A stretch of DNA of 64,000 nucleotides, from the NCBI RefSeq assembly GCF_044324785.1, contig NZ_CP172127.1, one strand, 5' to 3'. The notes under the pieces were generated by a model. It made no database searches and had not been told where the DNA came from. It saw nothing but the letters and a program-made list of their open reading frames with translations. Each line of letters begins with the position of its first letter. The first letter of the stretch is position 1. The position numbers and the translations under genes are program-made. This document shows positions 3,609-4,916 of the stretch, in pieces. The DNA is from Escherichia coli (GTDB taxonomy: Bacteria; Pseudomonadota; Gammaproteobacteria; Enterobacterales; Enterobacteriaceae).

Positions 3609-4520
3609 GTGAGTACATTAGAACAAACAATTGGCAATACGCCTCTGGTGAAGTTGCAGCGAATGGGGCCGAATAACGGCAGTGAAGTCTGGTTGAAACT
3701 GGAAGGCAATAACCCGGCAGGTTCGGTAAAAGATCGTGCGGCACTTTCGATGATCGTCGAGGCGGAAAAGCGCGGGGAAATTAAACCGGGTGACGTGCTG
3801 ATCGAAGCCACCAGTGGTAACACCGGCATTGCGCTGGCAATGATTGCCGCGCTTAAAGGCTATCGCATGAAATTGCTGATGCCCGACAACATGAGCCAGG
3901 AACGCCGTGCGGCGATGCGTGCTTATGGTGCGGAACTGATTCTTGTCACCAAAGAGCAGGGCATGGAAGGTGCGCGCGATCTGGCGCTGGAGATGGCGAA
4001 TCGTGGCGAAGGAAAGCTGCTCGATCAGTTCAATAATCCCGATAACCCTTATGCGCATTACACCACCACCGGCCCGGAAATCTGGCAGCAAACCGGCGGG
4101 CGCATCACTCATTTTGTCTCCAGCATGGGGACGACCGGCACTATCACCGGCGTTTCACGCTTTATGCGCGAACAATCCAAACCGGTGACCATTGTTGGCC
4201 TGCAGCCGGAAGAGGGCAGCAGCATTCCCGGCATTCGCCGCTGGCCTGCGGAATATCTGCCGGGGATTTTCAACGCTTCTCTGGTGGATGAGGTGCTGGA
4301 TATTCATCAGCGAGAAGCGGAAAACACCATGCGCGAACTGGCGATGCGGGAAGGAATATTCTGTGGCGTCAGCTCCGGCGGCGCGGTTGCCGGAGCACTG
4401 CGCGTGGCAAAAGCTAACCCCGGCGCGGTGGTTGTGGCGATCATCTGCGATCGCGGCGATCGCTACCTTTCTACCGGGGTGTTTGGGGAAGAGCATTTTA
4501 GTCAGGGGGCGGGGATTTAA
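3609..4520 (+). CDS. cysM: cysteine synthase B (O-acetylserine sulfhydrylase B)
   Basis: PLP-dependent cysteine synthase family; GTG start at 3609 (VSTLEQTIGNTPLV) gives 303 aa; the ATG at 3531 in the ORF track would read through the REP element and is rejected. Confidence 0.9.
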   Translation: MSTLEQTIGNTPLVKLQRMGPNNGSEVWLKLEGNNPAGSVKDRAALSMIVEAEKRGEIKPGDVLIEATSGNTGIALAMIAALKGYRMKLLMPDNMSQERRAAMRAYGAELILVTKEQGMEGARDLALEMANRGEGKLLDQFNNPDNPYAHYTTTGPEIWQQTGGRITHFVSSMGTTGTITGVSRFMREQSKPVTIVGLQPEEGSSIPGIRRWPAEYLPGIFNASLVDEVLDIHQREAENTMRELAMREGIFCGVSSGGAVAGALRVAKANPGAVVVAIICDRGDRYLSTGVFGEEHFSQGAGI

Positions 4521-4522
4521 GA

Positions 4523-4891
4523 TTATTGCGCAGGCACCGTTTTATCCGTCTGCGCAATTAGCGCATGTAAAAAAGGTTGTGCGTTCTCATCGCTTTTACC
4601 GGGCATCTTCACGATATACGGCTTCCCGGTAATCGATGACGACGAGGCTACCTTATCAATAAACTGCTCGGCAGTGTCAATGCGGTTACGGGTATTGCCG
4701 AGCTTCAGACGCAGGTGGGAAACCGCTTCATCGCAGGTATGTTCATCACCGTTGCGCACAAATATCAAATCCTTTTTCTGTGCTAATCCCTCCAGCATGG
4801 CGTTGATACGGGCTTCTTCATGGGCAGTTAACTTCGCGTAAACGGGGAGTGTCATTAGCAGCGTAATGACCAGATAAATGATTTTCTTCAT
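4523..4891 (-). CDS. yfeK: secreted protein of unknown function with N-terminal signal peptide
   Basis: 122 aa, signal peptide [19 protein letters not shown]; recognised as YfeK-like; convergent with cysM with only a 2-bp gap. Confidence 0.8.
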
Positions 4892-4916
4892 TGAATTAAC
4901 TTATCCTTGTTTTGTG

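Follow-up and report, generated by a model that had tools for sequence, protein, structure and literature searches.

A 2-bp cysM–yfeK junction in Escherichia coli as the common and probably older allele at the site of the accessory gene yfeS

Variable slots between conserved core genes are said to act as integration hotspots in bacterial pangenomes, and intrinsic terminators working in both directions are reportedly found between convergent genes. The closest described counterpart of the locus analysed here is the pdxK–yfeK–yfeS–cysM region of Escherichia coli K-12 (b2418–b2421), of which yfeK and yfeS were reported as co-induced genes of the sigma-E regulon (PMC2685091, PMC6850105, PMC3326320). 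With respect to the convergent arrangement, two further systems can be compared, namely the bidirectional intrinsic terminator (bioRxiv 10.1101/2022.10.23.513370) and the excludon, overlapping convergent transcription being a recognised regulatory mode (PMC7154746).

In this study, we analysed a 64-kb stretch of E. coli DNA, referred to as the window, in which cysM, the final gene of the cysPUWAM cluster according to the RefSeq annotation of syntenic loci, converges on yfeK. Flanking genes, gene order, and orientation are the same as in K-12, and the yfeK core and cysM are 96–97% identical. Unlike K-12, which harbors 966 nt at the site between both genes and encodes a YfeK of 124 aa, the window displays only 7 nt and a YfeK of 122 aa. 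In addition, the convergent genes of K-12 are separated by strong REP hairpins (-46.9 kcal/mol), whereas the junction of the window has none. The relevant features of the window are:

3609–4520, plus strand: cysM (cysteine synthase B), GTG start at 3609, 303 aa, TAA stop at 4518–4520, from the sequence and the ORF list
4521–4522: spacer GA, the 2 bp between the convergent stop codons of cysM and yfeK
4522–4528: empty site ATTATTG, 7 nt, replaced by 966 nt in K-12-type genomes according to the allele alignment
4523–4891, minus strand: yfeK, 122 aa, with signal peptide and DUF5329 domain, stop at 4523–4525 (TTA on the plus strand)
4525–4558: 11-bp inverted repeat (hairpin) with arms at 4525–4535 and 4548–4558 and a 12-nt loop
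4925–4951, minus strand: sigma-E-type promoter motif AAACTT-N16-TCAAA upstream of yfeK
4996–5847, plus strand: pdxK, flanking core gene, divergent from yfeK

The sequence and the ORF list agree on both stop codons and on the 2 bp between them, just as described in the initial annotation, which had been made from the letters of this stretch. YfeK of the window represents the short-tail allele (C-terminus ...KTVPAQ) and matched NCBIfam PRK10318.1-3 from end to end with 273.9 bits. The window is authentic E. coli DNA: hundreds of contigs from this species encode exactly its CysM, YfeK, and PdxK proteins, and one draft contig of E. coli revealed 99.97% identity to the window over 3.9 kb spanning the junction. 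The lack of yfeS between cysM and yfeK, also pointed out initially, extends to the rest of the window: tblastn with K-12-type YfeS against the 64 kb gave a best hit of E=2.3, and the insert DNA of K-12 matched only REP copies away from the junction (3545–3563 and 25250–25285). At the cysM–yfeK junction itself, neither a remnant of yfeS or the BIME nor REP palindromes were detected. Altogether, 13 convergent pairs of long ORFs were counted in the window, including a second 2-bp pair (34701/34704) and one pair overlapping by 10 nt; tight convergent junctions, including those of 2 bp, are nothing unusual.

Alignment with the K-12-type allele (L001), the check that had been proposed for this region, placed a yfeS cassette exactly at the junction and resulted in a net length difference of 959 bp (2260 vs. 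1301 bp). The K-12 gene order given in the initial annotation, with a 244-aa WGR-domain gene yfeS between yfeK and cysM, turned out to be right for K-12-type genomes. There, cysM is followed by 188 bp harboring a BIME of two REP palindromes (about 2150–2260 in L001), yfeS (244 aa, minus strand), 32 bp, and yfeK. Both alleles have in common everything through TAAG after cysM and everything from CGCAGG in yfeK, and the 966-nt segment in between consists of an 8-bp repeat, the BIME, yfeS, the 8-bp repeat again, and a new yfeK tail. The repeated 8-mer GGATTAAT forms the start and the end of the K-12 segment. All yfeS+ alleles share these identical ends (GGATTAAT twice) and an identical BIME, and a single assembled cassette therefore seems to be in exchange. 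The YfeK tail differs accordingly, reading ...PAEGN before the stop in yfeS+ alleles (124 aa) and ...PAQ in compact ones (122 aa). More generally, the tail past ...TDK(T/N)(V/L) is different for each type of cargo in the slot, and it lies outside the DUF5329 domain, which comprises YfeK residues 24–115. The start of yfeS is preceded by its own AGGAGG ribosome-binding site, the gap to the yfeK stop being 32 nt. Order and orientation of the flanks, cysA–cysM, (yfeS), and yfeK–pdxK–crr, are shared by L001, L002, L025, L026–L028, and the window.

A survey of yfeS presence, the second check suggested, was performed on 5,426 complete E. coli genomes. The compact junction was recovered as a single unbroken match in 4,038 of them (74.4%), and yfeS was present in 1,387 (25.6%). 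The entire arrangement of cysM 3' end, BIME, yfeS, and yfeK 3' end occurred in 1,373 genomes (25.3%), K-12 included, and the other c. 15 genomes include IS-disrupted or truncated forms, e.g., strain LR-03 with an IS1A within yfeS. Compact junctions were found, e.g., in O157:H7, O26:H11 11368, O111, B7A, ATCC 25922, SMS-3-5, and ST648 strains; K-12 MG1655, BW25113, and DH1 are among the yfeS+ genomes. Since the compact state in 4,038 genomes stands against 1,373 yfeS+ genomes, K-12 represents the minority state at the cysM–yfeK locus. As to the yfeS alleles, a dominant one of at least 99% identity accounted for 1,223 records, and minor ones of 95–99% for 165 records. All three defining features of an ordinary presence/absence polymorphism of an accessory gene were found at this locus. 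RefSeq genomes already contain annotations of both alleles, and there is nothing out of the ordinary about them.

With regard to its origin, yfeS differs from its neighbor in composition, revealing a GC content of 0.39 compared to 0.56 for cysM and a GC3 of 0.37 compared to 0.62. The nearest relatives of YfeS outside Escherichia and Pseudocitrobacter belong to Firmicutes and Bacteroidota. Beyond the Escherichia-type cluster of at least 89% identity, the named ones are from Paenibacillus, Lysinibacillus, Clostridium, Dysgonomonas, and Bacteroidota and share 45–58% identity. In a Pseudocitrobacter MAG (L006), yfeS occupies precisely this position, too, and its ends are identical. The dS values across all yfeS alleles ranged from 0.07 to 0.16, with 0.12 between K-12 and this MAG, whereas the flanks of the same pair showed a dS of 0.55 for cysM and about 1.0–1.1 for yfeK. 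The low dS of yfeS relative to its flanks therefore argues that the finished cassette, consisting of yfeS, a BIME of enterobacterial type, and the altered yfeK tail, was swapped between the genera well after their split. On each flank of the cassette, 20–30 nt are identical, representing the conserved 3' ends of cysM and yfeK. Judged by these signs, the accessory gene yfeS appears to have been acquired horizontally: deviating composition, patchy taxonomic distribution, and discordant divergence were all found.

The compact architecture TAA-Gx-TTATTGCGC[A/G]GG with a YfeK ending in ...PAQ was also detected in Escherichia lineage L003, which is about 10% divergent in cysM and yfeK, and in Pseudocitrobacter faecalis (L005), the dS of cysM to E. 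coli being about 0.5 for both. The spacer GA of the window is shared with E. coli WP4 and AST215 and with lineage L003, and P. faecalis displays GT instead. Even tighter arrangements occur in Enterobacteriaceae UBA5654 with a 1-bp junction and in Escherichia sp. E1V33, in which cysM and yfeK overlap by 12 nt. Because distant lineages share the junction, yfeS is foreign and young, and no product of a deletion via the repeats was found (see below), the compact junction is probably the older state within E. coli. Thus, of the two readings offered initially, an accessory yfeS with an ancestral compact junction is the one favoured by the survey, the GC content, the relatives of YfeS, the dS values, and the distant lineages.

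Outside these lineages, the slot is occupied in different ways. The slot of E. albertii comprises 1.8 kb (GC 0.345) with two unannotated ORFs, and that of Citrobacter sedlakii is 3.8 kb long and carries two large ORFs of the TPR type. A SnoaL/DUF4440 gene overlapping the cysM stop is found in Klebsiella and Superficieibacter electus. Salmonella carries an ORF, too; its identity with the Klebsiella SnoaL gene was rejected, as the two are unrelated on comparison. Geneless spacers of 31–57 bp were found in C. amalonaticus, another Superficieibacter, and Entomohabitans. Similar to integration hotspots, the locus shows conserved flanking core genes and unrelated cargo depending on the lineage. Unlike these, it comprises one or two genes without integrase, tRNA, or prophage, and the window displays the empty state. 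The scan of outgroup contigs required exact peptide words and missed E. fergusonii, Salmonella, Klebsiella, and the GTDB representative of E. coli; the loci of Salmonella and Klebsiella were retrieved via protein look-ups instead. Since the content of the slot varies across enterobacteria, ancestry at the family level is ambiguous, and the compact state itself could descend from an ancient loss.

Concerning the proteins, YfeS is recognisable only by its N-terminal WGR domain, found by Pfam, by NCBIfam (N-terminal 67 residues), and in PDB 2ra8 (residues 1–68). Assignment of yfeS or yfeK to defence genes was rejected, as PADLOC revealed no defence match for either product.

The initial annotation had also stated that the junction lacks a terminator. 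For canonical intrinsic terminators this holds, as a consensus scan found none at the junction on either strand and only a lone match inside yfeK (4675–4663), but an 11-bp hairpin in the 3' end of yfeK had been overlooked. It is located within the last 11 codons of yfeK, its first base lying 5 nt past the cysM stop, and folds with -16.3 kcal/mol (z=-3.7) on the plus strand and -14.0 kcal/mol (z=-3.1) on the minus strand. The K-12 allele forms a shorter stem, and its BIME structure between cysM and yfeS reaches -46.9 kcal/mol (z -3.7). Like bidirectional terminators, the window displays a GC-rich hairpin exactly between two convergent coding regions; unlike them, it lies within the coding sequence of yfeK, its 12-nt loop exceeds the 3–8 nt of an intrinsic terminator, and no U-tract follows the stem on either strand (plus strand UUAGCGCAUGUAAAAAAGG, minus strand UAAUCUUAAAUCCCC), an A6/U6 run being located on the wrong side of the hairpin. 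The hairpin was therefore rejected as an intrinsic or bidirectional terminator. A search of Rfam at permissive E-values resulted only in a sub-threshold REP-like match to naRNA4, located upstream of cysM, and in a miRNA match due to chance. No clear signal of a C-rich, rut-like signature was seen 3' of cysM, the GC skew being about 0 over 4550–4750. On the sequence level, an overlap of the convergent transcripts of the cys operon and yfeK in compact strains, as predicted initially, is plausible, and Rho or colliding polymerases might bring these transcripts to an end.

Upstream of yfeK, the sigma-E-type motif was the single match to AAACTT-N16-TCAAA in the 64-kb window and is located 30–60 nt 5' of the gene. 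It combines a GGAACTT-like -35 and a TCAAA-like -10 motif separated by about 16 nt, and yfeK is a putative sigma-E target in the strain of the window.

Several explanations for the compact junction were weighed. That an assembly or sequencing artefact deleted yfeS is refuted, with a probability close to nil, because 4,038 complete genomes share the identical junction, as does the independent draft contig with 99.97% identity to the window. A true loss would mean that the lineage of the window was once yfeS+ and lost the gene, be it through a precise deletion arising de novo, the other reading of the initial annotation, or through recombination that put the compact allele of another strain in its place. 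Recombination evidently moves both alleles, the 8-bp direct repeats GGATTAAT around the insert could mediate a deletion, and the closest complete genome, that of strain N3 (98.5% over 10 kb), is yfeS+, though still 1.5% divergent from the window. A deletion via the repeats, however, predicts the junction TAAGGATTAATTTCCTTCCGCAGG and a YfeK ending in ...PAEGN, whereas the window has TAAGATTATTGCGCAGG, which is identical to the junction of the distant lineages, and no remnant of yfeS or the BIME was left there. A synthetic repeat-collapsed junction was searched against the 5,426 genomes and found no exact match (0/5,426). Its best full-length matches, at 97.3% identity and 7 nt shorter, represent the ordinary compact allele, and the class of at least 99% was made up of yfeS+ genomes matched over half the length. 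We therefore rejected a precise deletion mediated by the repeats, and secondary loss as a whole appears unlikely to us. The same repeats might also be read as a target-site duplication, in which case the junction would be the target of a mobile cassette and the window its unoccupied attachment site. Both insert ends carry a perfect direct copy of the repeat in all yfeS+ alleles, the position of yfeS is identical in two genera despite far more diverged flanks, and other species carry unrelated cargo in the same slot. This cargo, however, has different boundaries and no common end motif, and the compact sequence does not equal the insert minus one copy of the repeat: the empty site AGATTATT is without the 8-mer GGATTAAT, and 7 nt differ. 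Neither a transposase or integrase nor terminal inverted repeats were found within or beside the insert, in which yfeS with its WGR domain is the sole ORF and which is flanked by cysM and yfeK. Because a recombinase and terminal inverted repeats are lacking, the insert of K-12 cannot be classed with transposons or integrative elements. Moreover, the 20–30 identical nt per flank are enough for homologous recombination, and we consider insertion of a mobile cassette improbable.

Two further ideas concern a function of the junction itself. It may be that the terminator-less junction is maintained since convergent read-through couples the sigma-E response (yfeK) with sulfur assimilation (cysPUWAM) in an excludon-like manner. 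Neither strand carries an intrinsic terminator, a sigma-E-type promoter lies closely 5' of yfeK, and thousands of genomes as well as other genera have kept the junction. As in an excludon, convergent genes of unrelated functions leave no space for separate 3' UTRs; in the window, by contrast, a regulatory consequence is purely hypothetical. Furthermore, a quarter of E. coli have c. 1 kb between both genes with no known consequence, other enterobacteria display spacers of 31–57 bp or cargo genes, and tight junctions look ordinary given the second convergent pair with 2 bp in the window, so that such a design strikes us as rather far-fetched. Likewise, there is only a slim chance that the 3' end of yfeK next to cysM is a recurrent capture slot under envelope-stress control, combined with mutual antisense regulation in the empty state. 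If true, captured foreign genes such as yfeS, the SnoaL-like gene, and the cargo of E. albertii and Citrobacter would gain envelope-stress control, each of them rewriting the C-terminal tail of YfeK, and in the empty state read-through between sigma-E-dependent yfeK and the CysB-dependent cys operon would link envelope stress with sulfur assimilation.

Taken together, the window very probably carries the common, older empty-site allele, with yfeS being a horizontally acquired single-gene cassette at this slot. On this reading, the absence of yfeS is not a sign of damage; rather, about a quarter of E. coli, K-12 included, carry a cassette of yfeS and its BIME/REP pair in the slot. Gain of the cassette would exchange 7 nt for 966 nt and recast the end of YfeK from PAQ to PAEGN. 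In this arrangement, yfeS is located 32 nt 3' of yfeK and equipped with its own Shine-Dalgarno sequence, and its transcription probably starts, together with that of yfeK, at the sigma-E-dependent promoter of the latter. The finished cassette allele may then spread across strains, and even genera, the simplest route being homologous recombination in the 3' ends of cysM and yfeK. In the compact allele, read-through from either gene would be antisense to the other until Rho or polymerase collision stops it, and the hairpin at 4525–4558 probably serves as a stabiliser of 3' ends rather than as a terminator.

Though the significance for wider biology is small, a gene of K-12 that seems to be "missing" need not mean a deletion. 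For E. coli, yfeS is better classed as accessory and horizontally exchanged than as part of a core sigma-E regulon, and YfeK occurs with two tail variants linked to the presence of the cassette. Strains with the compact junction would offer natural test cases for how convergent transcripts are ended without space for a terminator.

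Among 5,426 complete RefSeq E. coli genomes, strain N3 was the closest relative of the window strain, with a top identity of only 98.2-98.5% as measured on the window parts 1-9700 and 30000-40000. A draft contig (GCA_054573775.1) was nevertheless 99.97% identical to the window, and the exact proteins of the window also occur in E. coli contigs. The complete-genome set seems to lack the lineage of the window. In N3 itself (comparison locus L026), pdxK (4246-5096) is annotated as a frameshifted pseudogene.

Different genes were found between cysM and yfeK in several of the other comparison loci. 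In Escherichia albertii NBRC 107761 (L007, 4331-6149), this space is filled by cargo of 1.8 kb with a GC content of 0.345, comprising two ORFs of 280 aa and 175 aa in the same direction as cysM; the family search gave no match for the former and a weak, sub-threshold match to DKNYY for the latter, and the deduced YfeK ends in ...VELKNK. In Citrobacter sedlakii (L011, 4431-8142), yfeK is separated from cysM by two large ORFs of 628 and 654 aa in the same direction as yfeK, the second displaying TPR repeats. A further gene of 131-140 aa, SnoaL-like/DUF4440, is located downstream of yfeK in Klebsiella (L030-L033) and Superficieibacter electus (L012):

~4398-4805, SnoaL-like/DUF4440 gene, Klebsiella (L030-L033)
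4473-4895, SnoaL-like/DUF4440 gene, S. electus (L012)

In both, there is a 4-nt overlap between the 3' end of this gene and the cysM stop, and the gene is an alternative filling of the slot that leaves no intergenic region. In Salmonella enterica GCA_900456735.1 (L029), a cargo ORF of 116 aa downstream of yfeK seems to extend in a different reading frame up to around position 4917. The cysA gene of this record (6027-7126) is split into two called ORFs of 278 and 88 aa, which suggests a frameshift or a sequencing error.

With respect to gene spacing, Escherichia sp. E1V33 (L004) revealed an even tighter junction than the window, since its cysM and yfeK share 12 nt (1417-1428), a stretch containing both stops and giving rise to the YfeK tail ...VPSNP*; the window has a 2-bp spacer. 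Elsewhere in the window, two further tight convergent pairs were detected, the first of them in the ptsP-like/ypd region:

32206-34701, + strand, long ORF of 831 aa
34704-35561, - strand, long ORF of 285 aa
15335-16261, + strand, ORF of 308 aa
16252-16593, - strand, putative ORF of 113 aa

The stops of the first pair are again 2 bp apart (34701/34704), and therefore terminator-less tight convergent junctions recur in this genome. The second pair overlaps by 10 nt, and the 113-aa ORF may be a spurious call. In addition, a REP-type palindrome is present in the cysA–cysM interval of the window (3540-3590), which matches one REP of the K-12 insert and gave a partial hit to Rfam naRNA4, whose 37.9 bits fall short of the gathering score of 59.5.

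The yfeS gene itself is cut in two by an internal IS1A element in E. coli LR-03 (NZ_AP027474.1), one of about 15 genomes outside both main alleles. Outside E. coli, the yfeS+BIME cassette was identified in a Pseudocitrobacter MAG (L006, 4376-5316) with site and ends identical to those of the K-12-type locus (L001, 2122-3088). Because site and ends are the same and the dS between both loci is 0.12 for yfeS compared to 0.55 for cysM and about 1.0 for yfeK in the flanks, comparison at the sequence level indicates that this single-gene cassette has been exchanged between genera, with no mobility gene visible in it.
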